A stretch of 64,000 nt of DNA, taken from a virus. The position numbers and the translations under genes are program-made. The notes below the pieces were generated by a model. The model saw nothing but the letters and a program-made list of their open reading frames with translations, was not told the DNA's origin and searched no databases. The stretch is from the IMG/VR virus record IMGVR_UViG_3300031453_000081, one strand, 5' to 3'. Below, piece by piece: positions 1,448 through 58,987 of this stretch (the stretch's first letter is position 1; the number at the start of each line of letters is the position of its first letter).

Positions 1448-1660
1448 ATGCCCATCATCGGAACCGACTCCCAGCTCGCCCTGGATGGCTTCGGCTACTT
1501 CATCGAGCCGCACTCCTACCAGGTCATCCGACCACGCGTCCGCCGCACCGATCTCCTCGGCCAGTCCGCCAACCCAGTCGCCCCAGGCGCCGGCTCAGGA
1601 GAACGCTACGTCGACCGCGGTCCCGCCAAGCGTGAGTGGAAGTTCATCATCGTGGCCTTC
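1448..1660 (+). pseudogene. 5' part (codons 1-71) of a split Dit/minor-tail-like gene of the outer element
   Basis: MPIIGTDSQ...KREWKFIIVAF ends exactly at the att core and joins in frame to NNLTTY... at 58990. Confidence 0.85.
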
Positions 1661-1683
1661 GACACCCTGTGGGCCATGAACTC
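1634..1683. other. Left hybrid attachment site (attB arm / TT core 1658-1659 / attP arm)
   Basis: ...ATCGTGGCC TT CGACACCCTGTGGGCCATGAA; the arm 1660-1683 is the inverted repeat of 58963-58986. Confidence 0.9.
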
Positions 1684-3116
1684 TGTTCCTCTGCCCGCTG
1701 GGTCAGAATGGCGCCCAGTCCGGGCAACGGACGCAACGCCACGACCTCCTGGTTGTCAATCAGCAGTTCGCGGAACACTCGCCGCACCAACCGATTCCGC
1801 GTCGCCTCGTCCTCAGCACGTTCGTACACCACCGCCAGGTTGGTGAGCATCTGGGCCAGCTCTCGCGCCTGGGAGCCGCCGGCGTGCGTGCGGAGTGCCT
1901 GCAACCGACCCTGGAGGTGGCGGACCTGGTTGCGGTACTGCAGCTCCGACATCTGGCCGTACTCAACGTAGACCGCCTCCAGCCGCTTCAGCTGCGCGGC
2001 GATCCGCGTCTGTTCGTCGCTGGTGTCGTGGGACTGATGCTCCGCGGCGGCGGCGTAGCGTTCGGCTAGTGCCTCGGTCAGGGAGTACGCGGCGAGCGCG
2101 TCGACCACCTGCTGCTCAATCCGGGCGCTGAACACCGAGACCTGCCGGCATTCGCCACCGTAGAGGCGGGTCGAGCAATGCAGACGCACCTGGCCGCGCT
2201 GCGTCTGGGTATGGAACCGGCCGCCACATTTTCCGCAGGTGCCGAGACCGGAGAGGATATGAACGGTGCCACGGCTAATCACGGCGGGGCCACGTCGGTT
2301 CTCATGGCCGGCTACCTGCGCCCGGTTGAACGTCTCCTGGTCAATCAGTGCCGCGTGGAGCCCGGGCAGCCACTGCGTCGCTCCCTGGCTGCTGTTGTTC
2401 CGCCCCACTCCGATCTGGCCGACGTAAAAGCGATTGTGCAGAATGCTGTGCAGCAGTCCCGGCCCCATGTCATGAACGCTGTGCTGGTGAAGCGTCGCCA
2501 TGGTCTGCCGACGGGGTGTGCCGGCTGCGGTGAGCGCGAACACCTCGAGCACCACATCCGCACGCGAGAGGGCGCCATACGCCGGCGTGTCGTCGAACAC
2601 CGGCGCCAGTCTCGATTTGTCGTCTCCCTCTTGCCGCCGATAGCCGTAGGGCAGCCGACCGGCCCACAGCCCCGCCTCTATCCGCTCCGTCTTCCCCTTC
2701 CGCGTCTCGACCGCCAGATTGCGGCTGAAAAATTGCGCCGATTGCGCCAGAATCCCGGCCACCAGCTCGCCGGTTGGTGTCGTGGGGTCGATGCCCTCCT
2801 TCACGAAAATCACGCGGTTGTTGAGCCGGTGCAGCACGTCGTGGAACACGCGAGCATTGCGGGCCAGGCGGTCCAACTTGTCCACGATGATGGCGTCGGC
2901 GCCGCCGGCGAGTACCATATCGATCGCGCGACGCAACTCCGGGCGTTTGGTGAGCGTGTCGCTGTAGGCGCTGCGACCCTCGTCCGCGCAGATGTCGATC
3001 AACTCGTGCCCCTGGTACTCGCAGTGGTGGCGGATTGCACGCCGCTGCCCATCCAGAGAGTAGTTGTCGATCTGCTGCTCGCTGCTCACTCGTACATAGC
3101 CCACCACCCGTGTCAT
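1647..3116 (-). CDS. int: Large serine recombinase (integrase), 489 aa in the prophage state
   Basis: GYVRVSS catalytic Ser, DKLDRLAR, recombinase domain (PYGY), zinc ribbon CGKCG...HCSTR, coiled coil. GAGGGGG RBS before ATG 3116. Stop codon is supplied by the flanking attB arm. Confidence 0.95.
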   Translation of the reverse strand: MTRVVGYVRVSSEQQIDNYSLDGQRRAIRHHCEYQGHELIDICADEGRSAYSDTLTKRPELRRAIDMVLAGGADAIIVDKLDRLARNARVFHDVLHRLNNRVIFVKEGIDPTTPTGELVAGILAQSAQFFSRNLAVETRKGKTERIEAGLWAGRLPYGYRRQEGDDKSRLAPVFDDTPAYGALSRADVVLEVFALTAAGTPRRQTMATLHQHSVHDMGPGLLHSILHNRFYVGQIGVGRNNSSQGATQWLPGLHAALIDQETFNRAQVAGHENRRGPAVISRGTVHILSGLGTCGKCGGRFHTQTQRGQVRLHCSTRLYGGECRQVSVFSARIEQQVVDALAAYSLTEALAERYAAAAEHQSHDTSDEQTRIAAQLKRLEAVYVEYGQMSELQYRNQVRHLQGRLQALRTHAGGSQARELAQMLTNLAVVYERAEDEATRNRLVRRVFRELLIDNQEVVALRPLPGLGAILTQRAEEQSSWPTGCRRPR

Positions 3117-3268
3117 GCATCCCCCCTCGTTCGTTTCGGCGCCTTGTCGCGCTGCATAATCTCGCGAACCAGCAGCGTCAGCTCCCACATCTCGCGATCT
3201 GCCTGCGGGTTGCCGGTGATCGCCGGTGGCTGCATTGTAGTGGTGGTGCGCTGCTCAAGCTGTGCCAT
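3113..3268 (-). CDS. Small protein (51 aa) coupled to the integrase; candidate recombination directionality factor
   Basis: MAQLEQRTTT...KAPKRTRGDA*; ATGA overlap with the int start; function inferred from position only. Confidence 0.5.
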   Translation of the reverse strand: MAQLEQRTTTTMQPPAITGNPQADREMWELTLLVREIMQRDKAPKRTRGDA

Positions 3269-3623
3269 GATCCTCGCCTCGCCGATCTACGTGCAGTTGC
3301 AGCAGCACCATTTCCAGCCGTCGCAGCCGATCCGTAACCCGCAACTCTCGTTCCCGCCTGGCGACCACTTCGGATGCATGGCGGTTCGCCCTGGACAGCG
3401 TTTGATACCGCTCGTCCTCTATCAGCCGGGCCACTAGCCATGCCAGCCGTTGCTTCTCGTTTGCCCCCTCCAGGCCACCCAGAATGTAGCGACCCTCGAT
3501 TTTCTCCTGTTCCTCTCGTCGCTCGACTATCCCCTGCTGGAAGAGATAAATCTGCATCTCGTTCGCTCCCGCCTGCGCAATGTGGGACCGGATGGACTGC
3601 TCGAGCTCGTCGGTGGTCGTCAT
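3255..3623 (-). CDS. Hypothetical helical protein (122 aa)
   Basis: ATG at 3623 overlaps the stop of the upstream ORF. Confidence 0.65.
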   Translation of the reverse strand: MTTTDELEQSIRSHIAQAGANEMQIYLFQQGIVERREEQEKIEGRYILGGLEGANEKQRLAWLVARLIEDERYQTLSRANRHASEVVARRERELRVTDRLRRLEMVLLQLHVDRRGEDHGTA

Positions 3624-3841
3624 GGCTGCACCAGCCTGGGCTGGGACTGTTCGCCGATCTCCTCGGCCAATTTCACCTGCTCGACAATCTGCTCGCACAC
3701 CAACTCCTGCACTCGCTGCTTGACCCTTGCAGGCCAGGCAGCTGGGTACACGACGCCAATGGTAATCGCGACCTCATCAAATGCCGCATTAACGATCTTA
3801 GAAACGGTTTTGCAGGTCTCTTTCGCGCTTGCAGTGGCCAT
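3620..3841 (-). CDS. Hypothetical protein (73 aa)
   Basis: GAGGGG RBS; coupled stop/start. Confidence 0.6.
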   Translation of the reverse strand: MATASAKETCKTVSKIVNAAFDEVAITIGVVYPAAWPARVKQRVQELVCEQIVEQVKLAEEIGEQSQPRLVQP

Positions 3842-3849
3842 ACTTCCCC

Positions 3850-4707
3850 TCACTCACTCAGCCGCGAGACGGCGGCGTGTTGTCTATCTGCTCGGTATGG
3901 CTCCGAGAATCCCACCAATTGGCAGTTCCCATCGTCGAATATGCGCGGCGTTAGCCGGGGCATCATGGTGTCCATGTCGTCAAAATCGAGGTTCGTGGTC
4001 ACCACGGTCGGCAGGCGATGCTCCAGGCGATGCTGGCAGATGGTGAACCGCTGCTCCTCAACCCATGCCGATGATTTTGCTTTGCCGAAATCGTCCAGGA
4101 TCAACAGCGGCGAATGGAGTAGCTCGGACAGCTGGCGGGTAAACGTCTGCTCACTGCCGGCGTCAAACGTCGAACGCAACTCGATCATCAGCACTGGCTC
4201 AACCCGGTAGAGTACGGGCTTTCGCGCTCCCAACCAGTAGTTGCCGAGCATTTTTGCCATCGACGTTTTCCCCGAGTGATAGACGCCGTACAGCCACATC
4301 CAGCCCCTCGGGCAGCCCCCAAACGTCTGCACCGCATCATACTGCGACGCTTGCGCCGCAGTCGGCCTGAACGACCCAAATGTCACATCGCCAAAATCTT
4401 CTAGGCCGCTCCCGCCGATCAGGTTCGCGTGCTGCCTCTGCTCGACTGCCATACCCATCGGGCATCGGGTGCAGGTTACCAGCTCCGGCGTGGGATCCTC
4501 GCCAGGGATCCAGCTTTGGGCGTAGACCAGGCCCGAGCCATGGCAGTGCGAGCAGGGAGTGGGCCGGTCGTCAGGGATAGCCGGGAGGCCGCCCGCCACA
4601 CGCTCCGCCATCCTCGATTCGGCCGCCTCGAACCGCGCTCGAACCGCAGCCGGCAGATTTGATTTGAACGACTCCAGCCCCCCGGAAATGTGCCGGAATC
4701 CGGTCAC
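3850..4707 (-). CDS. DnaC/IstB-like helicase-loader ATPase with N-terminal zinc finger
   Basis: CSHCHG...CTRC; Walker A GVYHSGKT; Walker B LLILDDFG; VVTTN; directly downstream of the initiator. Confidence 0.88.
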   Translation of the reverse strand: MTGFRHISGGLESFKSNLPAAVRARFEAAESRMAERVAGGLPAIPDDRPTPCSHCHGSGLVYAQSWIPGEDPTPELVTCTRCPMGMAVEQRQHANLIGGSGLEDFGDVTFGSFRPTAAQASQYDAVQTFGGCPRGWMWLYGVYHSGKTSMAKMLGNYWLGARKPVLYRVEPVLMIELRSTFDAGSEQTFTRQLSELLHSPLLILDDFGKAKSSAWVEEQRFTICQHRLEHRLPTVVTTNLDFDDMDTMMPRLTPRIFDDGNCQLVGFSEPYRADRQHAAVSRLSE

Positions 4708-5843
4708 GATGCCACCGCCGCGTCCATCTCCTCAGCGAGCCGGTCCAGCTCGTCACGATCTCGCCAGTACCGATCGCGTTGCTCCGAAGCCTTTGCCGTC
4801 GCCTCGCTATCACCTTGCTCCTCGGCGGCGACACGCCGCTCCTCCGCCCGGTTGCCTTGAGTGTGGGCATTATCTCCCAGCACCCGGGCGTATTTGGGCG
4901 CCGTGACCTGCCATCGATTGGGAATGATGCAGGGCTTCGGGACAATGGCGAGCGTCGGATGACCTCGCGCTGTATGCCGTTGCTCCAACGGAAACTTCGC
5001 TTGTCTCACCCAGCGATCAAACGTTGCCGCCGTCGCCGCCGTCAGTTGCCGATCCTGCCGGTGCTGCACGCATTTCCGAGCCTCGGCCACCAAATCCACG
5101 GCGGGATAGGCAGCCAGGAGCGCCAGCAGCGTCTGCTCTGTGACCGGAGGATTGCCCGACGGGAAGAGCGGTACCAGCGCGTCGAACGCTGCCCGGTCTT
5201 CGGTTGACAGAGTGACTTGAACTGTTTGTAACGTCGCCGCCGTCGTTGGTTTCTCGACGGGAGGTGGTTGAGGAGACTCCTCGCGTGCGCGCGCGACGTC
5301 GGCGTCGTTGACAGATGGTGAGGTGATTTCTTTAGAGACGGTATGGTTTCGGTACGGTTTCGGTACGGTTTCGGTTACGACGGACTCTGCGCGTTGTCCG
5401 TTGGACGTCCCCTGGACACTGCCTGATGTCTCACTGAGGTCCGGCAGACATTCCTTATATACGCCATTGTCACTTGGAGAGCTGCTGGCCTGACTCCGGT
5501 AGTCTCGTTTGCGTTCGGCGTCTGTCCGCCGACGCTCAATGAGTTTGCCGGCGTAATCGTACCAGTCATGCAGGCAGAGTGAGCCGTCCTCCGAGCGGTC
5601 TATGAATCCAGCGCTCACGATCGCGTCGGTGAACAACTGAGGATCACCGTCCCATTCCGCAGCTGCGGCCAGGTCGAACGCATCGTATCGGGATAGATCG
5701 CCCTGCTGGGCGTGATCGAGCCCGAAGTACCACAGCGCGTGGAGGTGGCCAACGGCGTGGACGCGCTGTATTCCGAGCAGGCGCGCCATTCGGCTCGTTT
5801 TTGGATGGTGCAGCAACGTCTGATTTGATTCAATCCACGCCAT
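4704..5843 (-). CDS. Phage replication initiator / replisome organiser
   Basis: N-terminus MAWIESNQTLLHHPKT...GHLHALW typical of phage initiators; low-complexity linker with internal repeats; sits before the loader. Confidence 0.75.
   Translation of the reverse strand: MAWIESNQTLLHHPKTSRMARLLGIQRVHAVGHLHALWYFGLDHAQQGDLSRYDAFDLAAAAEWDGDPQLFTDAIVSAGFIDRSEDGSLCLHDWYDYAGKLIERRRTDAERKRDYRSQASSSPSDNGVYKECLPDLSETSGSVQGTSNGQRAESVVTETVPKPYRNHTVSKEITSPSVNDADVARAREESPQPPPVEKPTTAATLQTVQVTLSTEDRAAFDALVPLFPSGNPPVTEQTLLALLAAYPAVDLVAEARKCVQHRQDRQLTAATAATFDRWVRQAKFPLEQRHTARGHPTLAIVPKPCIIPNRWQVTAPKYARVLGDNAHTQGNRAEERRVAAEEQGDSEATAKASEQRDRYWRDRDELDRLAEEMDAAVAS
5345..5377. repeat. Three tandem 11-bp repeats GGTTTCGGTAC in the initiator gene (candidate iterons)
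   Basis: 5345-5355, 5356-5366 and 5367-5377 (last copy ends TA). Confidence 0.45.
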
Positions 5844-5845
5844 GG

Positions 5846-6862
5846 CTACGCACTCCCCCGAGCGCGGTTGCCGCGCATCTCGTTGTAGGCGCGAGACAAA
5901 TCCGTGATTGTGTCGCTCGCCTCGGTGGTCGTTCGGTCGCAGTTCATGTCGATGTCCCGGCCGAGGAGCCTCGCGAGTTTTTCTATGGTTGCGAGCTGGT
6001 TGGCCGTCGCCGGTTTTTCGGTGGCCCCTGGGCCAGTCCGGGCCACGCCGTCCGCGACGTCGTCTGAGTCCTCGTCGTCAAGCGAGAACGTCATGGATTC
6101 CTGCGATTGCATCACCACGCCGTCTGTCCCGTTGCTGGAGGCAAACAGTGCCCCGTTTGCCTCCTCGATGATCTCCCCGGTCTCCGTGTCGACCGATCGC
6201 TGTGCTGGTAGGGTGGCGTCTGACGCAGGTAGCGCGTCGTAGTCGATCACGATGTCACCGGAGGGCGAAACCGTAACCGGCACGCCCATTTCCTCGGGCA
6301 GGTAGAGGCCGGCGATGGTGTCGGCAAAATAAACTCGCGCCCCCTCGGCCACAGCACGCCAGTAGAGCATCGCTCGCGGGTACTGGCTCCACGGTCCCGT
6401 TTTGTTGGCGAGTCCGGCTTTTTGCGCGTCCGCCATGGTCCACTGAAACCGGCATGGCTCCTGGCCGTCCCGTCGCATCTCCACGATTGCATGCTCGTTC
6501 GTGCGTTCAATCGGACGAATAGCGCCGGCGCCGTGCGCCGCCTGGATGATCGCCGTGAGTCCCTGGCTCTGCACCACGGGCTTCCCGTTGACGAGTCCAA
6601 TTTGCTCTAGGGAGTACATGGGGGATAGACCCAGTTCGTATCCCTTCATCACGACCGCCGCGATTTGATAGCGGTTTGTGATGCCCTTGGGCAGGATCCC
6701 GGTGCCTTTTCCGGCGGCCTCCAGGACCATGGACTGCTCCGAGATCATGCGCCAGGTCGCAAGCGTCATCTGTCGCGTTGCCCGTGACGGCGCCGCGAGC
6801 GGCGGCGAGACGTTGGTCAACTCCAGGGACGGCCTTTCTGCGAGTGCGGTTTGTTCAGCCAT
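5846..6862 (-). CDS. recT: RecT-family single-strand annealing protein (338 aa)
   Basis: GGAGGAG RBS; IGLVNGKP, WSQYPRAMLYWRA...R..FAD..AGLYLPEEM. Confidence 0.8.
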   Translation of the reverse strand: MAEQTALAERPSLELTNVSPPLAAPSRATRQMTLATWRMISEQSMVLEAAGKGTGILPKGITNRYQIAAVVMKGYELGLSPMYSLEQIGLVNGKPVVQSQGLTAIIQAAHGAGAIRPIERTNEHAIVEMRRDGQEPCRFQWTMADAQKAGLANKTGPWSQYPRAMLYWRAVAEGARVYFADTIAGLYLPEEMGVPVTVSPSGDIVIDYDALPASDATLPAQRSVDTETGEIIEEANGALFASSNGTDGVVMQSQESMTFSLDDEDSDDVADGVARTGPGATEKPATANQLATIEKLARLLGRDIDMNCDRTTTEASDTITDLSRAYNEMRGNRARGSA

Positions 6863-7175
6863 TGCTGCTCCTCCGGGATAACGCCGCCTGTGCGGCCAGA
6901 CGATCGCGAGGGGTGGCGGCCTGGAGCTGCGCTTCGAGCTGTGCGATTCGATCATCCTGCGCGAGTTCGATGCACTCCATGGCGCGAACGCATTCCTCGG
7001 CGATCCTAATGCGGGTGAGCATGGCGCGGAGAACGACCATCAGATCCGCTAGGGCGATGGAGTCCTGGTCAGCGAGGTGGGCGAGAGCCATATCGATCTC
7101 CGGAATTGTGTAGGGAGGCGTGGGGAGCGGCTGCGGGGAATCGGCGGTAACGACGTGCAGCACGGCGGGGCTCAT
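6855..7175 (-). CDS. Hypothetical coiled-coil protein (106 aa)
   Basis: Overlapping start/stop with neighbours. Confidence 0.6.
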   Translation of the reverse strand: MSPAVLHVVTADSPQPLPTPPYTIPEIDMALAHLADQDSIALADLMVVLRAMLTRIRIAEECVRAMECIELAQDDRIAQLEAQLQAATPRDRLAAQAALSRRSSNG

Positions 7176-7342
7176 GACGCCACCACCTGAAGCGCCAGAT
7201 AGAGGATGAATCCCCAGAATGCCGCCAGTGCCAGGACCACCGTGATCCATAGCGAAACGACAATCCACCGCGTGCGTCCGGGCGCGTCGAGCCGGGTCAG
7301 GACGACGTGATGTGTGTGCAGGCGTCCGATAACAGCTTTCAT
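7172..7342 (-). CDS. Small membrane protein (56 aa, MKAVIGRL...WITVVLALAAFWGFILYLALQVVAS)
   Basis: GGAGG RBS; long hydrophobic segment; translated by hand. Confidence 0.55.
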   Translation of the reverse strand: MKAVIGRLHTHHVVLTRLDAPGRTRWIVVSLWITVVLALAAFWGFILYLALQVVAS

Positions 7343-7463
7343 GACGATTGACGACCTCCGTTGATGTAAAATGCGATACGGGCAGCATTTTTGCAGGTGC
7401 GACTCGTGGCTTGACTCAGGCCCTGGAGCTGACGCTCTGGGGCCTTCTCTTATTTCAGGCGGT

Positions 7464-7502
7464 GGAAAGGCGCGCCGTGATTGGAGAACGGCGCGCCTTT
7501 CC
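7464..7502. terminator. 15-bp perfect inverted repeat, terminator-like
   Basis: GGAAAGGCGCGCCGT-9 nt-ACGGCGCGCCTTTCC; short T tails. Confidence 0.55.
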
Positions 7503-7514
7503 TGTTACCCGCTC

Positions 7515-7838
7515 CTAGCGTTTCCCCGGCTCTCGCTCCGGACGGTGCTCGGGTCGATGTTCCGGGCGCTCCGTCGGTCGTTCCGCCGGGCGATGCTCAG
7601 GGTGCTCTGGGGACTGTTCCGGCCGCCGCTCTGGCGTGTGCTCGGGGCGTCCAGCGGGCTGCCGTGTGCCGGGAACGTGCGGTGGCGCATGTTCTGGCGC
7701 ATGCTCGGGCGCATGCTCGGGCGCGTGCTCGGGACTGTGACCGGGCGGGTGCTCATGCACATGCTCCGGCCGGTGGTCCTGTTTCTCGCGGGATTTGTGG
7801 TCCGGGTGATACTCCGGGTTCTGGTTCACGCCTTCCAT
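7515..7838 (-). CDS. Pro/Glu/His (PEH)-repeat low-complexity protein
   Basis: AAAGGA RBS before ATG 7838 (alternative GTG 7934); PEHA/RPEH repeats. Confidence 0.55.
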   Translation of the reverse strand: MEGVNQNPEYHPDHKSREKQDHRPEHVHEHPPGHSPEHAPEHAPEHAPEHAPPHVPGTRQPAGRPEHTPERRPEQSPEHPEHRPAERPTERPEHRPEHRPEREPGKR

Positions 7839-7933
7839 GTCAGTTCCTTTCTCGTGATGAGTGTTGAAAATTCTGTGCCAGGGTGCTACATCCCTCCTCT
7901 CAGTTGGTTTCGGTTCGGGGTCGAGCCAGTCCA

Positions 7934-8107
7934 CTAGGACGGCTCTTTGTCTGCATGCATCAGTGCCACGATCTCAGTGCGGTTTGCTGCCTGGCGCGCG
8001 TCGTACGCCGCCTGTTCCTCGACTGTCATCAAGCGGAAGAGCTCCGGTTCGCTGTCGATAATCTCCTGGCAGATTTGGCGCGTGGCCTCGGCGTAGGTCA
8101 GGGTCAT
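7934..8107 (-). CDS. Hypothetical protein (57 aa)
   Basis: ATGA overlap with 8104-8919. Confidence 0.55.
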   Translation of the reverse strand: MTLTYAEATRQICQEIIDSEPELFRLMTVEEQAAYDARQAANRTEIVALMHADKEPS

Positions 8108-8919
8108 GACGTGATACCCCCTGTCAGATATGCAGCGAGTCGTCCCCGCTGCCATTGGCGTTCAGCGCCCCAGGCAGCGTCCCCGGCAGCGTTCCCGGCA
8201 GCGTCCCAGGCAGCGTCCCAGGCAGCGTTCCCGGCAGCGTCCCAGGCAGCGTCCCAGGCAGCGTCCCCGGCAGCGTTCCCGGCAGCGTTCCCGGCAGCGT
8301 CCCCGGCAGCGTTCCCGGCAGCGTTCCCGGCAGCGGCCCCGGCAGCGGTCGAGGCAGCGTTCCTGGCAGCGGTCCAGGCAGCGGCCCCGGCAGCGTTCCA
8401 GGCAGCGTTCCCGGCAGCGTTCCCGGCAGCGGCCCCGGCAGCGGCCCCGGCAGCGTTCCTGGCAGCGGTCCTGGCAGCGTCCAATTCGGTCCGCGTTGCC
8501 TCGCCATTTGCAAATCGACGCGCCGTTTCGATTGCCAGTCGCGGCCGCCGGTCAGCAGGCATAGCAGCCTGCACGACATGCAGCACGCGCTCCGCGCAGT
8601 CGCAGGCAAACAGCCGCAGATTGCGCTCATTCCATGTTTCGATGTGCCGGATTGTGCGCGCTCTACGGCAGACGCATTTGTCACCAGCATCGAGCACCTT
8701 GCCTGCAGTTTCGACCTCGTACAGGTGCTCGCCGCGCCACGTCAACGCGAGCACCTGATCCCATGTGAGGATATGGTAGCCGTTTGCGCAGGCTATTAGC
8801 GCCCCCTCAGCCGGGTTTAGCCACACGCCCGGCTGGTTGCCGTCTGGCAGCGACCATCTCCCGTACCCCATCGGCGTGATACCGTCAGCGCTGAGCAGCT
8901 TGTAGTACGCCTCGCTCAT
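8104..8919 (-). CDS. Phage protein with Imm5-like helical domain and AA(G/W/R)(N/D/A/T) tandem repeats
   Basis: CAERVLHV...[25 protein letters not shown] motif followed by 25 four-residue repeats. Confidence 0.7.
8173..8472. repeat. 25 tandem 12-bp units GGCAGCG(T/G)(T/C)CC(C/A/T)
   Basis: Counted directly. Confidence 0.95.
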
Positions 8920-9104
8920 AGCCCGGTCTCCACATGGGCATCCACGCTGTGGGTACGTTCGGCGTTCTCCGCGAGTTGGAGCGTGAGGGCATGGATGGCC
9001 AGCACGATTGCCTCTGCACCGGCTGCGATCTCATACGTTGACTCACTAGCCGTGCGGCGCGCCCTCTGGAGCAGTTTCGCGACCTCGGGCGATAACTCGC
9101 CCAT
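8916..9104 (-). CDS. Hypothetical protein (62 aa)
   Basis: TGATG coupling; GAGGTGG RBS. Confidence 0.55.
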   Translation of the reverse strand: MGELSPEVAKLLQRARRTASESTYEIAAGAEAIVLAIHALTLQLAENAERTHSVDAHVETGL

Positions 9105-9442: not shown

Positions 9443-9454
9443 GTGGGACTCCTC

Positions 9455-16865: not shown

Positions 16866-17117
16866 CAAAACTCGTGTGAAATGGCGGTGCCTTTGTAGGC
16901 GCTGCTCGTTGGCTATCGGGCAGTACGGGGTAGCTCCCGTCTGGGTATTACTCCCAGCGCCTTTCACTCTGCCCCGGCGGGTTGCCTTCCGGCCTGCCGG
17001 GGCGCCTCCTGCGATAGTTCAATGAGCGTTCAATTACCGCCTTATTCCGCGCGGAATATAGGGAATGGGAATCGTCATTTACAGCACTTGGGGTGTGTTT
17101 CCGAAAGCTGGGCGGTC

Positions 17118-18077
17118 ATGGACAACCTCGCGATCATTGCCGCCGATCAACTGCCGGCCAATCGAACGCCGGCGGATCGAAACCCCGTTCTGATTTATCT
17201 CGCCCGGCTCGCCCCAGGCAGCCGGCGCACACAATCCCAGGCGCTCCGTGTGATCGCGACGATGGCCCACCCTGGCGCCGATCCGCTCACCTTTCCTTGG
17301 CAGGCTCTGGACTATCAGCACACCAGCGCTATCCGGTCGCAGCTCGCCGCCCGGTATGCGCCGGCGACGGCCAACAAAATGCTGTCCGCTCTACGCGGCG
17401 TTCTGACTGAGTGCCGCCGCCTGCAATTGATGCCTGCAGATCAATGTGAACGCGCTCGCGACGTCGCCGTCGTACGCGGCACTCGACTCCCAAAAGGACG
17501 TGCCCTTGGAACCGCAGAACTCACCGCCCTTTTCGCCACCTGCGTCGAGCCGACGCCAGCGAACCTCCGAGACGCCGCGTTGTTGTCCACCTTATACAGT
17601 GGAGGACTCCGGCGTGCTGAGGCCGTGGCGCTGGACGTTGCCGACTATAACGTCGGGGAGCAGTCCATCGCCATCCGAGCCGGCAAGGGAAACAAGGGAC
17701 GAGTCGTGTATCTCTCCGACAGCGCCGCCGTCAAGCTCGGAGCATGGCTCTGGCGTTGCACATCCGGGTCCGCCGTATCCGGTAGCACCGCTCCGGCGCT
17801 GTTTGTTCGAATCCGCCGAGGCGGGCACATCACCGCCGACCGGCTGACCGATCAGGCGGTGCGGTACATCCTGCTGCAACGCTGTGAACAGGCGGGCATC
17901 GCCGCCGCGGCGCCGCATGACATGAGACGTACGATGATCTCGCACCTGCTCGACGCCGGCATTGACATCAGCACGGTTCAGCAGATCGCCGGCCACAGTA
18001 GCGTGACGACCACCCAACGGTACGACCGCCGCGGTGAGGGACGGAAAAAGCGTGCGGCGCAGGCGTTGAACCTGTGA
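17118..18077 (+). CDS. Tyrosine recombinase (XerC/D-like, 319 aa)
   Basis: R (GLRRAE), K (GKGNK), HDMRR, GH, Y (TTQRY) catalytic set intact. Confidence 0.92.
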   Translation: MDNLAIIAADQLPANRTPADRNPVLIYLARLAPGSRRTQSQALRVIATMAHPGADPLTFPWQALDYQHTSAIRSQLAARYAPATANKMLSALRGVLTECRRLQLMPADQCERARDVAVVRGTRLPKGRALGTAELTALFATCVEPTPANLRDAALLSTLYSGGLRRAEAVALDVADYNVGEQSIAIRAGKGNKGRVVYLSDSAAVKLGAWLWRCTSGSAVSGSTAPALFVRIRRGGHITADRLTDQAVRYILLQRCEQAGIAAAAPHDMRRTMISHLLDAGIDISTVQQIAGHSSVTTTQRYDRRGEGRKKRAAQALNL

Positions 18078-51899: not shown

Positions 51900-52801
51900 A
51901 ATCATTCTCTGCCGCTCTCGCTGGTATCCTGCTGATCGTTGCGGCCAGCATCGCTATAGTGCGCGTCCGAACAGCCCGGGCACCCCACGCGCCTGCCAAC
52001 ATCGGTCGGACCGCGACCTACACTTCGGCCATGCCAACCATGCGTATCGGCGGCGGCGCCTCCATCTCACGTGCCTGGCAGCCCTACCCCACGCGCGGTA
52101 CAACCCATTTCGCGCAACTGTGGCGCGATCATCCCGAGTGTGGTCGCCCAATCGATCGCGAACGGCGCCTCGGCTTACTCTGGTTTCAGCGGTTTCGCCA
52201 CTGCGTGATGCACGACACGGTGAGCGTTATCAGCGACCGCCCGGTACAACCCACGCCATACATTCCGCCGACTGCACTCCCAATTGCACAGTCCACAGTG
52301 ACGCCAGTTCAGCCAACAGACATCCCGGTTCAGCCGACGAACCCACCGACGTCTGCGCCGCCTTCAACTCCCTGCGCCCCCGATTGCTCCCAGTGGGTAC
52401 TGGGGCAGATTAACGCCGAGCGCACGCAATACGGTGAGGCGCCGCTCACGCTGTCCCCGCTGCTCTCCAACGGTGATGGATCGTGCATCGGCGCGATCGG
52501 CCACGCCGATCACATGGCAAACGATCTCCACACCATCGCCCACGACCAGTTCCCCACCGATGTCTGTGGCTCCTACTCAACTGCAGGGGAAAACGTCGGC
52601 GTTTCGGCCTACGGGTCGATTGCCGCGGACGTGCAACAGATCCACATCTCGATGAAGTCCGAGCCATTCAGCCTCGGCTGCTCGGGGAACCATCACTGCG
52701 ACTGGATGAATCCCTCGTTCACCAGGATCGGCATCGCCATTGTTCCCGGCGCGTATGCGGGACTCCCCGCGCACTACCTCAGTGAGGAGTTCGCCGGATA
52801 A
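51896..52801 (+). CDS. Exported CAP/SCP-domain protein (301 aa, TTG start)
   Basis: CAGGAG RBS; INAERTQYGEAPL, HADHMA, GENVG, H..WMNPSFTRIGIAI; P/T linker. Confidence 0.8.
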   Translation: MKSFSAALAGILLIVAASIAIVRVRTARAPHAPANIGRTATYTSAMPTMRIGGGASISRAWQPYPTRGTTHFAQLWRDHPECGRPIDRERRLGLLWFQRFRHCVMHDTVSVISDRPVQPTPYIPPTALPIAQSTVTPVQPTDIPVQPTNPPTSAPPSTPCAPDCSQWVLGQINAERTQYGEAPLTLSPLLSNGDGSCIGAIGHADHMANDLHTIAHDQFPTDVCGSYSTAGENVGVSAYGSIAADVQQIHISMKSEPFSLGCSGNHHCDWMNPSFTRIGIAIVPGAYAGLPAHYLSEEFAG

Positions 52802-52803
52802 CT

Positions 52804-53193
52804 ATGCATCTCATGTCTCACCGTCTCCGCGCCGTCCTCTCTACCATCGGCCTCGTCGCCCTCTTGATCTACGCCATATACCGTGGCAGCAACAACGCCA
52901 GCCTGGCCGTATTCACCGGCGTGGCGGCGCTAGCGCTGTCCCAGACCATGAGCGCCTATCTACTCGCCGTACTTGATGCGAAAACCTTACGCGCCGAGCG
53001 CTGGCTGCTGCCCGGTCGGTGGATAGAGTCACCCGTGCCGTTCGCCGGCGAGATCGTCGCGCTGCAAGGCAGATTCTTACTGCTGAAAACGGCGGACGGC
53101 GGCGACCAGCGCATCCCGGCACAGGTAGTGTTTACCAGTCCGACGACCATCTACGACGCCAAGCCACCACCACCCACACAGGAGACAGCATGA
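52804..53193 (+). CDS. Two-TM protein with MscS-like beta-domain
   Basis: Two TM helices then PGRWIE..GEIVAL..RFLLLKTADG..IP..VFTS. Confidence 0.55.
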   Translation: MHLMSHRLRAVLSTIGLVALLIYAIYRGSNNASLAVFTGVAALALSQTMSAYLLAVLDAKTLRAERWLLPGRWIESPVPFAGEIVALQGRFLLLKTADGGDQRIPAQVVFTSPTTIYDAKPPPPTQETA

Positions 53194-53645
53194 CCCCGCT
53201 CGTTAATGCCTCATCCCTGATCGACCTGACGGCAGCTGCTTTCGCGGTGGCCGCTGTAGTCCAGATTTCGAAGTTCGGCCTGGACTACCTCATCAAGCCG
53301 ACCAGCCCGAATCACACGAACATCGTCAGGTTGTACGTCTATATCATCGCGACTGGTGTCGTCGTGCTCTACTCTTCGGCCAACACCGTCGTGGCATTCA
53401 CCGGCCAGTTTGTCACTGGCGTCCTGACTGCGGTGCTAACCGTGGGCACCGGTGCCATCCTCCAATACAACCTGCTGAACGGATTGAGTACCACCCCCGG
53501 CTCCATCGCTGCGAGCTCGCCTGCCACCGTATCCGATCTTCCAACCCAAACACCGCCCACGCCATCCGTCGCCGCTGTCCTCGTTCAGCCCGCTCCAGTC
53601 GAAGCCATGAGCACTCCGACATCCGACCCGGCCCAGCGCATTTAG
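53190..53645 (+). CDS. Holin-like three-TM protein
   Basis: CAGGAG RBS; three hydrophobic helices; last gene of the late operon. Confidence 0.65.
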   Translation: MTPLVNASSLIDLTAAAFAVAAVVQISKFGLDYLIKPTSPNHTNIVRLYVYIIATGVVVLYSSANTVVAFTGQFVTGVLTAVLTVGTGAILQYNLLNGLSTTPGSIAASSPATVSDLPTQTPPTPSVAAVLVQPAPVEAMSTPTSDPAQRI

Positions 53646-53923
53646 GCCGGGTCGACTTCTGCCTCTGGCCGAGACAACAGATTGAACTCCTTCAGGGTCT
53701 CGATCAAATCTGACGCGTGAATGACAATAGCGGCGGTCTTGCCCTCTGTAGGAGCGACAGTTATCCGCAGCACGTATTCACCGCCCAGTGATTCACGATC
53801 GATGTCGACAATGCCATCCGTTTCACCGTAGCCAAGCACCTGCCCTTCGAAACCGAATAGCAACGTTGGCTCCTCATGCACCCCAGTGATTCGGGCATGG
53901 AGCCTATACGTCACATCACTCAT
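53642..53923 (-). CDS. Hypothetical protein (93 aa)
   Basis: AAGGAG RBS; last gene of the leftward right-end operon. Confidence 0.6.
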   Translation of the reverse strand: MSDVTYRLHARITGVHEEPTLLFGFEGQVLGYGETDGIVDIDRESLGGEYVLRITVAPTEGKTAAIVIHASDLIETLKEFNLLSRPEAEVDPA

Positions 53924-53949
53924 CTCATTCTCCTTTTTCTCCCGCCAAT

Positions 53950-54456
53950 TCAAACTTGCTTTTGCGCTTGAATTGGCGGGAGATCATCAACGGTCATGAT
54001 TCGCGGTATGCCAGGGCAATCAAAAATATCATGATGAAACCTCCAGGAACCGCCAGGCGGGGAATCGCGAGGGGGCGGGTGATATGGCTCCCTCCAAACG
54101 TCACACGAATCGCACACCCAACGCACTGGAAACAACGGCTCGCCGGAAGCCGTAACGGCATCGGCAAAAAGGAGATGTCCGAAGGGTCGGTAAAACATGC
54201 GATAGAGGTTTTCGCTCTCTTCTGATCCGGCTTCAGCATCATATCCAACCTCACGCACAACTGCATCGGCCATCGCCATCGCCGTCCCGCCAGTACCTTG
54301 ATCGGCCCAAAACACAGAACCAGCATCGCCGACTTGCAGCAAGGACAATGCCCCGCGCGCGTTGCTTAGCGCATAGTAGGACCGCTGGGCAAACCGCACG
54401 AGCTGCTCCCGAGTCCAACGGTCAAATGGACTCTCTCCATAATCTAAGGTCTTCAT
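53950..54456 (-). CDS. Hypothetical protein (168 aa)
   Basis: GAGGAG RBS; CDSC...CPG. Confidence 0.6.
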   Translation of the reverse strand: MKTLDYGESPFDRWTREQLVRFAQRSYYALSNARGALSLLQVGDAGSVFWADQGTGGTAMAMADAVVREVGYDAEAGSEESENLYRMFYRPFGHLLFADAVTASGEPLFPVRWVCDSCDVWREPYHPPPRDSPPGGSWRFHHDIFDCPGIPRIMTVDDLPPIQAQKQV

Positions 54457-54481
54457 CTTATCTCCTCTCTCTGCCGTCGTC

Positions 54482-54682
54482 TCAGTCTTCGGGCTGGGCG
54501 GCGGCTTTTTTGCGTTCAGTGAGTTCATCGAAGACGCCAATAGCATCCCGCATGGCCTGTAATTCAGCGTTCGAGAGTCGGGCGTTCTGGCGTATTCGAG
54601 CCGAATGGCTTTCCCACAATTGGGCGGTTCGTAACGCTCTCATCACCAAACGGGACAACAGGGGCAGTCTCTCATTCAACAT
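54482..54682 (-). CDS. Hypothetical protein (66 aa)
   Basis: GGAGG RBS. Confidence 0.55.
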   Translation of the reverse strand: MLNERLPLLSRLVMRALRTAQLWESHSARIRQNARLSNAELQAMRDAIGVFDELTERKKAAAQPED

Positions 54683-54713
54683 GCGCTATCCTCCGTTCCA
54701 ACTCATTCATCAC

Positions 54714-55304
54714 TCAGTCCCAATACAGCGCAATCATCGACTCCTCCGGCAACTCGCGCAGATATGCCCACACCGCCCGATTCTGCGGTTCCTCGTACAC
54801 GCCAGGATGGTCGCTGAAGCGTAGCAACTCCCGAACAGGCCCCATTCTGAGCGGATCCCCGGTGCCGGTCTTCTGTGTATTGCCGTAGTGTTCATCCCGG
54901 ACGTTCAGGCCGCTTAAATAGGTGTTGAACATCGCCGGTACCGGGATCTCGAATTGGCGACTAAAATCTGACAGAAAGCAAAACAGGTCAGGGCATTGCT
55001 CTAGTGTTAGAACTGTCTGAGAATACCCCTCTTTCTCCCAGTCGCCTTCAACTGGCAGCAGCTTCAAATTTAGCCCCATATCCTCAACCTCCTCAATGCT
55101 CACCTCAGGCAGCGTAGGCGAAACATTCTCCGGCCACGGAATCATGATAGAGCCGCTATCGTCAACAGCTCCGAATACTTGATGCATGGCGGCGCCATGC
55201 TCGTTGGTGCAGGTGACGTCGATGCCATAGTTAGCGACGCCGTGCCGTTGCGCCTCAATACGCGCCTCGACGCACTCTGCGATTACTCTATCAACGAAGT
55301 TCAT
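54714..55304 (-). CDS. Hypothetical protein (196 aa)
   Basis: GAGGAG RBS. Confidence 0.6.
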   Translation of the reverse strand: MNFVDRVIAECVEARIEAQRHGVANYGIDVTCTNEHGAAMHQVFGAVDDSGSIMIPWPENVSPTLPEVSIEEVEDMGLNLKLLPVEGDWEKEGYSQTVLTLEQCPDLFCFLSDFSRQFEIPVPAMFNTYLSGLNVRDEHYGNTQKTGTGDPLRMGPVRELLRFSDHPGVYEEPQNRAVWAYLRELPEESMIALYWD

Positions 55305-55509
55305 GCCCGCTCCTCTCGACATCCCGCTCATCCAACGCTGTGAGTAACGGCTCAAGCTCGCTCCACACGTCGAACAGGCACTCCTCACAGAGCAGGAAGC
55401 TAGCAACTCCGTACAGTTGGAGTTCATTTATGGACCGGCAGTTTCTACACACCCCATAATCGCGAGCGTGGGCAGCAATCCTATCCACGCCGGTCAGGTG
55501 CAGGCTCAT
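55291..55509 (-). CDS. Small zinc-finger protein
   Basis: CRNC...CEEC. Confidence 0.55.
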   Translation of the reverse strand: MSLHLTGVDRIAAHARDYGVCRNCRSINELQLYGVASFLLCEECLFDVWSELEPLLTALDERDVERSGHELR

Positions 55510-55706
55510 GGCTCCTCCGATGGCACTGGCTCCGCTGTCTCAATGGATATCGCTAGGCCATGCAGCGGGCAATTCTCGTTGAAAACATAGGAGCTTTCTC
55601 CGGCTATCTGCACGTAGCCCCGCCCATAGTGGTTATCCATAACCGGACAGAGACAGCCGAGACGCACCGCCTCGTCACTGCCCGGTGGCGGCGTGTCCGT
55701 GGTCAT
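55506..55706 (-). CDS. Small Cys/His phage protein (66 aa)
   Basis: PGSDEA..GCLCPVMDN..G.G...CPLHG motif recognised from other phages. Confidence 0.6.
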   Translation of the reverse strand: MTTDTPPPGSDEAVRLGCLCPVMDNHYGRGYVQIAGESSYVFNENCPLHGLAISIETAEPVPSEEP

Positions 55707-55871
55707 GGCTTCATGAGCCAGGCCGCCATGAGCAACAGCACCGAGATCGTCAGAACCACACGGCACCGGCTTTATAGTCCGCCAGTGAAGCCGCCGCGCC
55801 CGCCATGCCTATGGCAACCCCGAACACAAATAGGATTTGAGAGCCAACCATCCACCCTCTGTCGTCAATTT

Positions 55872-56981
55872 TCATCTCTGCCCCCGTTGTGGCAAACGAA
55901 ACCCGGCAGACGATGCGGGAATCGGCTCAGCCCGCCCTTCAGCAATGCCGTACAGCTCCGCGAGCGTATGACTGCCGACTCTCTGCGGCACATTTCGCGC
56001 AGCAAGCCATGCGGCTGACTCAGGAGCAGTCAGCGACGTAAAGGTAATCCTGCCGGCACACCGTCCTGGCCGCGTTACCGCCGGATGCAACATCCCCAAT
56101 TCCTCATTCGTACTGATCAGCACCAGCACGCGCAGCCCTTGTCCAAGCAGCCCGTCGGTGACGTTGAGCAGTCGTGAGAGCGCCTGTCCGACATGTTCCT
56201 TGGCATCGACCGTCAGCATCTCACCTGTATCCTCCAGCACCAAGAGACGCCACTTCTGCTCTGGAGGAGGACCGGAGGACACAGGCGCGAATCCATCCTG
56301 CTCGTCATCAAAGAGCACGTTCAACAAGTAGGCTGAGCTATCACCAAACAACGTTTCCGGATCGACGATGTAGTGCACCGTGCACCACGTCCGCCACTCC
56401 CACCCAAGCGCGCGCAGAGCAAAACTTTTGCCAGTGCCTGGTGGCCCGTTCCAGAGGATGATACGCCCCGACTCCGGGCGGGTATGAATCAGGGCGCCGA
56501 GTTCAGCCCGGACAGACCGACTGTAGTTCTCCTCGATTTGACCCCATGCAGGGATGTCAATCATGCGCCGCATTTTGCGTGGCCCTTGCGGGGTCAACGT
56601 CCAGAGCCACAAGGGAATGCGCTGTTCATCGGTCAAGACCGGCGTGGGGAACAAGTCACGGAGCGCGCTCAGCACTGAATCGCGACCAAAGACCGACAGA
56701 GCAGCGATCCTCACACTGATCGAGCCGTCCACAAGCGAGACGTGCGCCGCTCCGCCTTCAAGTTCGATAATTGCAGATTGAAAACCGTCGGAAACGTATT
56801 GGTAGCGAATCTGATCCGTGAGGCAATCAAGCGACTCCGCCGATGTGGCCCAACTACCATCTTTCATGTAGGGTGTCCGTTTTGCCATGGCATACCTGGT
56901 AAAGAGGTCGCTCGTGAAGTCTCGTCCCGTTTGCGTGTCGATAGTCAATTCGGTCAAAACCTGGTCAAATGTGTCGATCAT
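55872..56981 (-). CDS. AAA+ ATPase with N-terminal accessory domain
   Basis: GPPGTGKS, LLVLED, LSRLLNVTDG, STN, RPGR. Confidence 0.88.
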   Translation of the reverse strand: MIDTFDQVLTELTIDTQTGRDFTSDLFTRYAMAKRTPYMKDGSWATSAESLDCLTDQIRYQYVSDGFQSAIIELEGGAAHVSLVDGSISVRIAALSVFGRDSVLSALRDLFPTPVLTDEQRIPLWLWTLTPQGPRKMRRMIDIPAWGQIEENYSRSVRAELGALIHTRPESGRIILWNGPPGTGKSFALRALGWEWRTWCTVHYIVDPETLFGDSSAYLLNVLFDDEQDGFAPVSSGPPPEQKWRLLVLEDTGEMLTVDAKEHVGQALSRLLNVTDGLLGQGLRVLVLISTNEELGMLHPAVTRPGRCAGRITFTSLTAPESAAWLAARNVPQRVGSHTLAELYGIAEGRAEPIPASSAGFRLPQRGQR

Positions 56982-57522
56982 AGATTCTTCTCTCCGCCCT
57001 TCTGCTGAAAACGGTCATTCTCGCTCCTTACTTTCCCGTCAATAGCAACTGCTGTATATCCGCGACCCCATTCCGTTGCGCCGCTTCGTAGACCATCGTG
57101 CTGTGCTCCCCCGACCACCGACCCATCCTGCAGCATCAGGTAGGGCAGCATCTCACGAGCAAATCCTTCGGTGGCTTCAGCCCTGCTCTTCTCGCTATCG
57201 TCCAGCCCCTCGACTGTTGCGATGATTTTCGCCTTCAGCAGATAGACGAGCACACGCCAACGACGCTGGCGTTCCAACGTTGCCAGAGCCTGCACCTGCG
57301 CATCCGTGCGGTGGTCCCGACGCGAAAACTCTCCGGGTCCGGCTGCTCGATGGCAAATGAGTACCAGCGGGCGCCGATCTCGGCCATCAGCTGATACGAC
57401 GTGTCCGACTCGTGCGTGCTGAACCGAACTGCGCCGGCCTGTTTAAGCAACTGACGCATCTCAGCAACAGACTGACTGACTTCGACGGACGTGTTCTCGG
57501 CGTAGCGGCGTTTCTTCGCCAT
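56978..57522 (-). pseudogene. Conserved phage hypothetical gene split by a -1 frameshift at 57325-57328 (~181 aa if fused)
   Basis: YAENTSV..S.AE N-half and RQRRWR.L..LLKAK...LPY.ML.DG C-half are in different frames; AGT TTT CGC vs TCG. Confidence 0.65.
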
Positions 57523-57761
57523 TACTCATGCTCCCCCGTCTTTTCGGGGGTCGCGCCCCACTCCTGTTCCGCCGCCAGAATATCCCGCGTCTCCCGTAGC
57601 ATTCGCAGCGCATGGTCCAGTTGCTCGATATGGCACTCAATCAACACCTGCGTCGCTGGACTCTGGGTCACCACATGCCGGTCGCAGTACTCGGCATGGA
57701 GGGCTTCGGTCCGGTCGATCACGTCATCAACAACCAGAGACAACGGACGGGAGGAGATCAT
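57522..57761 (-). CDS. Hypothetical helical protein (79 aa), homologue of 60489-60764
   Basis: LHAEYCDRH...QVLIECHIEQLDHA...E..D.L.AE..W. Confidence 0.65.
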   Translation of the reverse strand: MISSRPLSLVVDDVIDRTEALHAEYCDRHVVTQSPATQVLIECHIEQLDHALRMLRETRDILAAEQEWGATPEKTGEHE

Positions 57762-58198
57762 GAAACAACCACATTGGTCTTGAGTGCTGCGATAATCACC
57801 GGCCAATCCCAGCCCGGTTGCGCGTCGGTACGCTCGCCAAGGGCATTCAGCAGTTCACCGGTCTGGACAGCGTCGAGTTCTCTGGTCTTGACGATGGAGA
57901 AGCCATGCTTGCGCAGGTACCGCCAGGTGGCTAACCGCGCGTCGTCGGTCGACATCGTCGCGGACTCTGTCGCAACGGCAGATGCCGATTTCTTCGACAG
58001 TCGGACCGCCTTCAGCCGTTCCCCTCCCACAAGCGCCTGGAATCGTTTCGGTTCCGCTTCAATCTCGGCCACGGTCGGGTCCAGCATCGCCGCCAGCGCC
58101 TCCAGTCCAGCCTGGCGCACACTATCCCGCCCGGCATTGGACAGCGGAACATTACGCGGCGCGTCAGGGTCGGGCAGTAATTCTTCCTGGCGGTTCAT
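57758..58198 (-). CDS. Hypothetical protein (146 aa)
   Basis: Coupled; starts MNRQEELLPDPD. Confidence 0.6.
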   Translation of the reverse strand: MNRQEELLPDPDAPRNVPLSNAGRDSVRQAGLEALAAMLDPTVAEIEAEPKRFQALVGGERLKAVRLSKKSASAVATESATMSTDDARLATWRYLRKHGFSIVKTRELDAVQTGELLNALGERTDAQPGWDWPVIIAALKTNVVVS

Positions 58199-58421
58199 GT
58201 CGTCACACTTGATCCCGCTGTATGGATAGGCGAGTGCCCACACTCGCCGTCGTTCTCCCAACAGGCGAAGCAGAGATGGCCACCACAGCGCCAGCAGCGC
58301 TCATATTGGTCTTCTGGGATAGCAATGCCGCACCGGCCACAGTAGTCAATCGTCACCGTGGTCATCTGAGAAGCGGGCGGCGAGTCAGGGTCGGGCAGTA
58401 ATTCTTCCTGGCGGTTCATGT
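58163..58421. repeat. 38-bp perfect direct repeat (58163-58200 and 58384-58421)
   Basis: GTCAGGGTCGGGCAGTAATTCTTCCTGGCGGTTCATGT twice. Confidence 0.95.
58195..58419 (-). CDS. Small zinc-finger protein (74 aa)
   Basis: GAGAGGAGG RBS; CGRC...CWRC...CFAC...CGH; starts MNRQEELLPDPD. Confidence 0.65.
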   Translation of the reverse strand: MNRQEELLPDPDSPPASQMTTVTIDYCGRCGIAIPEDQYERCWRCGGHLCFACWENDGECGHSPIHTAGSSVTT

Positions 58422-58733
58422 TGACGCCTCCTCTCGTTGTTTCGCCGTCATGACGGGGCTTTCCAGTACACTCGAATCCTGATCAAGCGGGAATATCAGC
58501 ACGCCATCGACCGCATGCCAAACATCCGACAAGCGCTCAATCACCGACTCGATCCGGGTCTGGCATCTCCGCACCTCTAGATAGAGCCAGCGGGACTCTC
58601 TGGCAGCGTCCGCATGCCCAAGCCCTGCCAGACGATCCGCCATGGCGTTGAGGTTGTCCATCGCGCAATACTGATCGCCTAGAAAGTCGGCAGCCTCTTT
58701 GCAATACAGATACTCATAGCTGCCGCCGCTCAC
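58416..58733 (-). CDS. Conserved phage hypothetical protein (105 aa)
   Basis: MSGGSYEYL...MADRLAGLG..DAARE...LSDVWHAV; GTGA overlap with the upstream stop. Confidence 0.65.
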   Translation of the reverse strand: MSGGSYEYLYCKEAADFLGDQYCAMDNLNAMADRLAGLGHADAARESRWLYLEVRRCQTRIESVIERLSDVWHAVDGVLIFPLDQDSSVLESPVMTAKQREEAST

Positions 58734-58987
58734 AACTGCACCGCCTGTTCCTCGTAGCGTTTCAGCACGGCACGAAGCGCGCTCTCCGACACATGCCACT
58801 CTGCCGCCAACGCCCGCGCCGGCGTACCCGCCGCCCGCTCTCGTGCAATCTGCGGCCAGAACGCGACCGGGATTTTCGGGAATGTGCGTTGCCCGGTCCC
58901 GGTGATTGGCACCGCCCACCACCCGTCGGCGAGTGGTTTCAGATAGGGCGCAACGACATCACGACTTCGTGGCTCACAGTCCGACGT
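58730..58987 (-). CDS. Detached C-terminal segment (85 aa, HTH) of the integrase; in frame with int across attP
   Basis: No stop between 58987 and 58733; KIP..WPQIAR..AAG.PARALAAEWHVSESALRAVL HTH. Confidence 0.8.
   Translation of the reverse strand, partial: TSDCEPRSRDVVAPYLKPLADGWWAVPITGTGQRTFPKIPVAFWPQIARERAAGTPARALAAEWHVSESALRAVLKRYEEQAVQL

Follow-up and report, generated by a model that had tools for sequence, protein, structure and literature searches.

A large serine integrase gene that spans its own attachment site encodes different C-termini in the free and integrated forms of a phage

What does a phage integrase gene encode when the site at which its product recombines lies inside the gene itself? 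This question is raised by a 64,000-nt stretch of viral DNA (IMG/VR record IMGVR_UViG_3300031453_000081; hereafter the window, meaning the whole stretch analyzed), in which the open reading frame (ORF) of a large serine integrase spans the left junction (attL) of an integrated phage. On the minus strand this frame runs over 1650-3116 and encodes 489 residues with the C-terminus ...SSWPTGCRRPR, followed by a TGA at 1649-1647. An initial annotation, made from the letters alone, had described a frame that crosses the attL core and stops on a TGA of the target DNA, and both its coordinates and its sequence were as claimed. The codons CGA and AGG lie at the crossover (1661-1656), and the target DNA supplies the end of the 489-residue form: its two final codons (CCA CGA), part of AGG and the stop codon TGA.

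When attP is rebuilt from the two junctions (58730-58986, TT and 1660-3116, minus strand), the same frame yields an ORF of 571 residues with one terminal stop, reproducing the continuation to 58730 that the initial annotation had proposed. The attP site lies inside the integrase ORF: the free or circular genome encodes a protein of 571 residues and the prophage one of 489 residues, with the recombinase core complete in both. Integration shifts the last 85 integrase codons, hereafter the tail, 57 kb away, and the gene then ends on the TGA of the target to give the shorter form. The coordinates of these features are collected in Table 1.

An attachment site inside the integrase gene

The crossover was located by aligning attL and attR with two intact attB sites. 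The plus-strand ORF starting at 1448 is interrupted at 1660 and continues from 58987, and the same 147-aa target gene is unbroken in IMG/VR contigs L007 (5785-6228) and L009 (5788-6228), where it reads ...KFIIVAF/NNLTTY... across the site. After alignment of both junctions with these contigs, TTC (1658-1660 and 58987-58989) is the sole common core, and the crossover dinucleotide is TT (1658-59 and 58987-88). The rebuilt attP presents a dyad matching at 15 of 21 positions only with this TT as its centre, a score of at least 15 being reached at 2 of the approximately 64,000 window positions. Furthermore, the TTCATCA motif of the B half-site lies 6 bp closer to the centre than TTCATGG in P', a displacement of the kind expected, by analogy, of large serine integrases, in which the DBD2-type motif is shifted by 4-5 bp between attB and attP (PMC11722253). 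An alternative core, TCGTGGC (1650-56 and 58967-73), would also keep the reading frames; it was excluded by the intact attB sites of L007 and L009, which read ...GTGGCC TTC AACAAC, and by the attP unitig described below, which begins at 1658.

The half-sites also determine where the two proteins end. On the integrase strand the B half-site reads TGA TGA and terminates the 489-residue form, and the P half-site differs from P' exactly where perfect symmetry would give an in-frame TGA (CCA CGA A, not CCA TGA A), a stop avoidance that we infer to reflect selection. An mRNA hairpin formed by the attP dyad had a stability no better than that of shuffled sequences (z = -0.8). The same attB is occupied in L001, a contig with an integrase 93% identical to that of the window, which stops 23 bp past the integrase stop and about 35 bp past the crossover. 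Separately, an IMG/VR contig of the outer element (L008, 1-20) begins 5 nt before the attB crossover, which would fit an assembly break at an insertion-polymorphic site.

The window itself contains only the integrated form, and Logan contigs of four rock-metagenome runs were compared with its positions 1000-4000. Run X5 contains an attL contig (depth 143) that extends to 1687, a phage-side contig (depth 218) that begins at 1658, and a 57-nt unitig (depth 89) that corresponds to window 1658-1687 preceded by 27 letters identical to 58960-58986. This unitig is the attP circle junction, located at the very TT at which the initial annotation had placed it. The depths are additive, 143 + 89 being close to 218, and about two fifths of the phage copies in the X5 sample are therefore non-integrated. 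The empty attB form of a related outer element is present in run X7, which belongs to another study. Both the integrated and the circular or free form of the DNA exist in nature. A further joint in the X5 layout, at 1254/1388, consisted of pieces of 23-31 nt with mismatches and was rejected as spurious. No empty attB contig was seen in X5 (window 1000-1687) despite about 40% of the inner-phage copies being in attP form; free phage copies thus leave no visible repaired outer-element genomes in this run, a weak observation given that contigs drop rare variants.

The 489-residue integrase matches the Pfam families Resolvase, Recombinase and Zn_ribbon_recom (PF00239, PF07508 and PF13408) above their cut-offs. 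Its AlphaFold2 model is composed of a catalytic domain, helix E (residues 114-147), a recombinase domain and a zinc ribbon (292-345 and 448-478) with an inserted coiled coil (348-445), and ends in a disordered segment (479-489). Cysteines C294, C297, C314 and C323 are invariant in the alignment of homologues. The crossover falls within the disordered stretch past the last zinc-ribbon helix, with every recombinase domain upstream of it. The start codon (ATG, 3116) shares an ATGA overlap with the stop of a 51-aa ORF upstream and agrees with the start of the homologues; that ORF (3113-3268) had no family match in Pfam and PHROG scans. By domain and att architecture the enzyme belongs to the large serine recombinases, and as such it would be expected to catalyse attP x attB recombination without host factors and to need a directionality factor for excision.

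The region between the junctions encodes terminase, portal, major head, tail fibre and tail proteins, together with a DnaC-like loader, a replication initiator and RecT. Judged by this gene content, the 57.3-kb insert is a bona fide phage. A tyrosine-recombinase-like gene (17022-18077, plus strand; phrog_1 integrase, E = 1e-38) is located directly upstream of the terminase of this phage, and both att junctions match the serine-integrase type. Genes of the outer element include one for a papain-like peptidase (phrog_16701) and one for an SGNH-like protein that weakly matches a tail protein (window 61134-62111 and 244-1029).

Table 1. Features of the integrase locus, attachment sites and target gene in the window
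Feature	Position	Strand	Basis
Large serine integrase gene, prophage (attL) form, 489 aa and stop	1647-3116	-	Pfam, AlphaFold2 model
51-aa ORF, stop overlapping integrase start (ATGA)	3113-3268	-	ORF list
Integrated phage, 57.3 kb	1660-58986		Structural and replication genes
Tail, 85 codons and stop, joined to integrase only in attP: linker, PLADGWWAVP segment, predicted three-helix helix-turn-helix	58730-58987	-	Translation, 9 homologues, fold, predicted zinc-ribbon contact
Target-derived TGA that closes the tail frame in the prophage, directly upstream of the crossover	58988-58990	-	Sequence
GTG, sole in-frame ATG/GTG/TTG of the tail, 25 codons in (V26), past most of the conserved, putative docking segment	58910-58912	-	Sequence, homologues
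Next gene (phrog_6724), GTG start overlapping tail stop (GTGA)	58416-58733	-	PHROG match
5' half of the split 147-aa target gene (another phage-like element)	1448-1660	+	Intact copies L007, L009
3' half of the split target gene	58987-59217	+	Alignment with intact copies
attL core TTC, crossover dinucleotide TT 1658-1659	1658-1660		Alignment; contig break and attP unitig start at 1658
attR core TTC	58987-58989		Alignment
P' half-site of attP, inside integrase codons ...SSWPTGCR	1660-1680		Dyad
P half-site of attP, TTCGTGG where P' has TTCATGG	58966-58986		Dyad
B half-site in target gene, motif TTCATCA	1637-1657		Sequence, att alignment

The tail and its relatives

An open frame is by itself weak evidence for a fusion, because 8% of the long ORFs in the window would read on for at least 85 codons. 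The tail is conserved: an exhaustive phmmer search of 1.84 billion cluster representatives recovered nine homologues, which define a conserved block (D-L-A-x-Y-F-R-P-L-P-D-G-Y-W-A-V-P ... PKIPRAWWP) followed by a putative helix-turn-helix (HTH). This block begins about 16 residues upstream of the GTG at 58912, and its columns P18, L19, G22 and W24 precede V26. Since the block has no start codon ahead of it and the frame is closed at attR by a TGA, it can be translated as a whole only from attP, as a fusion to the integrase. The suggestion, also made in the initial annotation, that the stranded piece might be expressed alone from the GTG as a recombination directionality factor (RDF) fared less well, as the 60-aa product would lack most of the segment predicted to touch the integrase and is a poor candidate for that role.

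Downstream of the tail, residue 1 of the phrog_6724 protein matches position 1 of its profile, and the GTGA coupling of the tail stop with the start of this gene makes it credible that the tail frame is translated. AlphaFold2 predicts three helices over tail residues 41-84 with a predicted local distance difference test score (pLDDT) of about 88, the N-terminal part being poorly defined, and we place modest confidence in the assignment of this fold to the HTH class. From the sequences, we consider it quite probable that the phage has two integrase isoforms and that the tail of the longer one is a real module.

The same in-frame fusion is encountered in a second, divergent element. Contigs L004, which contains an attL and an integrase 49% identical to that of the window, and L011, which contains an attR and a tail 47% identical, originate from the same run. 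A fused protease-capsid gene (phrog_29592) is represented by its protease-scaffold part (positions 187-607) beside the L004 integrase, and a gene of this kind by its capsid part (phrog_29592 positions 603-886) beside the L011 tail. Joined at their shared TT, the two contigs give a seamless 705-aa protease-capsid target ORF and an attP with a dyad of 14 of 21 positions at that centre only, and the integrase continues in frame into the tail (...LDLTDAH/SSVCQVQG...YLKPLPDGYW...). The L004 integrase is complete, its true start having been overlooked by the gene caller. These results strongly suggest that L004 and L011 are one prophage.

Analogy with the window would put the junctions of L002-L004 21 nt downstream of TTCATGG, a position rejected on the PHROG coordinates and the L004/L011 join, which place the crossover at the TT of CATTCAT. 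The SW...GRRR..W(stop) ends of the L002-L004 integrases are antisense to the target, and their likeness to ...SSWPTGCRRPR is therefore coincidental. Target-derived ends are also present in distant relatives (36-37% identity) inserted in dprA (L005 5028-5936 and L006 11457-11573), in which the last five codons and the stop are the antisense of a conserved dprA segment, ...SGALITADYAL; database sequences of this integrase clade therefore finish in target-derived residues. The ends of the prophage-form integrases (P0002 and P0005-P0011) are all arginine-rich (RPR, RRRxxW, RSRR and RNRL) and come from three unrelated targets, a composition that may reflect G+C-rich attB half-sites.

Both complete members of the clade sit in structural-region genes of other phage-like elements, namely the 147-aa gene of the window and the protease-capsid gene (L004 1971-3248 with L011 1495-2391). 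Such a prophage-in-phage insertion would inactivate the outer element until excision.

Other tail homologues either lie close to contig ends (at 38 and 63 bp), as expected if an att site interrupts the assembly, or survive as truncated relics on bacterial chromosomes. The first 40-60 residues of the tail, with att-proximal DNA, form truncated copies at multiple sites on bacterial contigs of the same metagenomes (L012-L016, L020-L025 and L106, the last a Chloroflexi metagenome-assembled genome), and some of the copies are fused in frame to host ORFs, as at the end of an alpha/beta-hydrolase in L021. These copies look like scars of old integrations, and the relic in the Chloroflexi genome hints at the host group.

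Searches aimed directly at the fusion returned no further example. No called integrase-tail fusion was detected by word-based search, by searches of IMG/VR with the tail, of GenBank phages, or of IMG/VR with the attP DNA pattern; a search of IMG/VR with the integrase alignment also revealed none, the best match having 30% identity. The tail motif was present in 0 of 60 other serine recombinases, and a related-locus search with a trimmed alignment (A4) returned relics only. No cultured or catalogued relative was found in IMG/VR with the integrase alignment or among GenBank phages.

Predicted docking of the tail and readings of its role

A complex between the tail and integrase residues 160-489 was modelled, alongside three controls and with a required margin of 0.20 over the best of them. 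The complex scored 0.65 versus 0.44 for the best of the three controls; of 78 solved complexes, 51 attain the same mark as this complex, as do 2 of 108 mismatched pairs. In the model, tail residues 14-33, which coincide with the conserved segment, contact integrase residues 293-299, 336-343 and 450-475, that is, the zinc-ribbon strands and the helices flanking the coiled coil. Directionality factors bind to DBD2, the zinc-ribbon domain, and to the coiled-coil base (PMC11722253, PMC12286644), and the tail is hence predicted to sit on the same integrase surface that these factors use.

An infecting genome can make only the 571-residue form, which is therefore the integrating enzyme, and a lysogen can make only the 489-residue form, which is therefore the excising one. 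We propose that the tail would be a true C-terminal module of the free-form enzyme, in which its conserved segment would pack on the zinc-ribbon domain by the base of the coiled coil, occupying or shaping that surface, and its HTH could serve as a third DNA-binding element. The isoforms may then differ in the setting of the coiled coil or in their response to a directionality factor: the free form would be biased to integration or insensitive to the factor, and the prophage form, with the surface exposed, would be open to factor-dependent excision. As a whole, this explanation, an attP-spanning integrase with a tail module that alters the enzyme, is the one towards which we lean, by a modest degree of belief. 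Its component claims are graded differently. An effect of the tail on recombination is put forward tentatively, and we think it unlikely that genome configuration selects the isoform to the full extent of a 571-residue enzyme locked into integration or blind to the factor and a 489-residue enzyme able to excise.

Several observations count against the proposed role of the tail. Run X5, which provides the circle junction, is possibly the sample behind the window assembly. Among the 1.84 billion cluster representatives, no called protein is a serine recombinase ending in the tail, and the close integrase homologues found are all prophage forms. The stretch also turned up in no RNA run. In the docking model the margin over the controls is 0.21 against the required 0.20 and barely passes, an unrelated protein having scored 0.44. 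The HTH that the initial annotation had recognized at the end of the tail finds modest support in the three-helix fold, and the Pfam matches to HTH_23 (19.8 bits, cut-off 24.6) and HTH_28 (18.2 bits, cut-off 25) remain below their gathering cut-offs; Foldseek retrieves only generic HTH domains (paired, Hin, IstA and KorA) with E about 1. In L011, a TTG with GGAG upstream of it is a possible start for the tail alone and could yield a free 73-aa protein keeping the docking segment. Finally, a tail acting as a classical directionality factor would be incompatible with lysogeny. Engineered integrase-RDF fusions block attP x attB integration (PMC5737554, PMC12286644), and the tail should not be able to act as such a factor because the natural fusion is encoded by the form that must integrate.

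Some of these points bear on the most serious alternative, according to which the tail is a separate small HTH protein, either an early regulator or a directionality factor, whose own start has been lost here, leaving an incidental fusion and an unaffected integrase. All nine library homologues (9/9) are called as small ORFs of 73-194 aa; these calls are nevertheless located at att junctions or contig ends, where a fusion is invisible to the gene caller. The TTG with its GGAG in L011, which could start a free protein including the docking segment, the coincidence of the predicted docking site with that used by directionality factors (PMC11722253), and the presence of the motif in no other serine recombinase of the retrieved set are what this alternative would lead one to expect, and the tail of the relatives might also act as a free protein. 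Against it, the window lacks any ATG, GTG or TTG ahead of the conserved block, the tail frame of the prophage is closed by a TGA, and the in-frame junction is preserved in a second element at 49% and 47% identity. Weighing these observations, we assign the separate-protein alternative a minor though appreciable probability.

A second alternative shifts the emphasis from the protein to its transcription. RecT, the replication initiator, the loader, the integrase, the tail and the small genes that follow are all on the minus strand, and their ATGA and GTGA overlaps run across the rebuilt attP. The C-terminal swap could then be a neutral by-product of an att site lying within a long early operon, in which integration would sever the genes downstream of the integrase gene, about 5 kb at the right end of the prophage, from their promoter and restrict their expression to the circle; a crossover in a disordered stretch beyond all recombinase domains agrees with such neutrality. 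Left unexplained, however, are the tail segment in frame with the integrase in two divergent elements, the avoidance of an in-frame TGA in the P half-site and the predicted packing of the segment on the zinc-ribbon domain. Severance of an operon is also compatible with a functional tail module, rather than exclusive of it, and as a sufficient account by itself we find it improbable. Although the window is of metagenome origin, it is exceedingly improbable that it represents a chimeric assembly of two phages with no real integration, given that both junctions fall at one TT in a gene intact elsewhere, that separate contigs of consistent depth represent each of the attL, attP and attB forms, and that the relative L001 occupies the same attB.

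Relation to known systems and implications

The layout found here, with the crossover inside the ORF and different C-termini in the two DNA forms, is that of the self-remodelled integrase genes exemplified by IntP/IntX of Myxococcus phage Mx8 and by DsiB. In Mx8, attP reportedly lies within the int gene and integration swaps the C-terminus for a short host-derived peptide; unlike the integrase described here, that enzyme is a tyrosine recombinase, with another chemistry and another directionality logic. Mycobacteriophage BPs is likewise said to have its attP inside a gene, so that its free and integrated forms encode different proteins. That phage remodels its repressor gene and has a tyrosine recombinase as integrase, whereas here the integrase itself is remodelled. 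The integrases of SSV1-type archaeal viruses have their recombination site within the integrase gene, which is altered by integration; they are tyrosine recombinases whose gene is split into two non-functional parts, in contrast with the complete recombinase that stays intact in the present prophage. The canonical integrases of phiC31, Bxb1, LI/A118 and SPbeta share with this enzyme the domain order, an attP of about 44 bp with dyad symmetry, a 2-bp crossover and a DBD2-type motif closer to the centre in attB than in attP. To our knowledge, their att sites lie beside the int gene and not within it, and a single protein serves both states.

The closest precedent is DsiB, from the ssrA islands of Dehalococcoides, which runs counter to the statement of the initial annotation that this arrangement was not known from a large serine recombinase; its novelty had been overstated. 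There, dsiB always overlaps attL and meets a stop codon only outside the island, and its authors speculated that the gene is fully functional only on the circular element (McMurdie et al. 2011, PMC3146451). DsiB is thus, like this integrase, a large serine recombinase whose ORF overlaps attL without a stop inside the element. It differs in being CcrB-like and in serving small genomic islands with the tmRNA gene as their target, rather than a 57-kb phage; its circle-form end was neither reconstructed nor shown to form a conserved domain, whereas here a conserved 85-aa HTH module is swapped and both DNA forms are observed. Five elements are new: the swapped piece is conserved and predicted to be folded, with a predicted docking segment; by its sequence, it has no other route of synthesis in this phage; the in-frame fusion recurs in a second element; both DNA forms are present in a natural sample; and both complete examples are in structural genes of other phages.

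Engineered integrase-RDF fusions offer a different comparison, in that a small C-terminal protein reaches the zinc ribbon and the base of the coiled coil and sets directionality (Olorunniji et al. 2017, PMC5737554; PMC12286644). Those fusions are artificial and favour excision, while the natural fusion in this phage is encoded by the form that must integrate. Serine integrases are valued for genome engineering because a separate factor sets the direction of the reaction, and a C-terminal module added or removed by the reaction of the enzyme itself would, if the proposal is true, offer a self-contained means of giving the two directions different enzymes. With both proteins, the four att sites and the tail defined, the idea is directly testable.

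For annotation, the database integrases of this clade are prophage forms, and target DNA supplies their ends, with up to 14 residues of the relatives' integrases coming from the antisense strand of a capsid gene, and the free-form protein is missing from catalogues. For the phage itself, if the proposal is true, each DNA state would encode the enzyme that leaves that state, in what would be a natural counterpart, of opposite sign, to the engineered integrase-RDF fusions.

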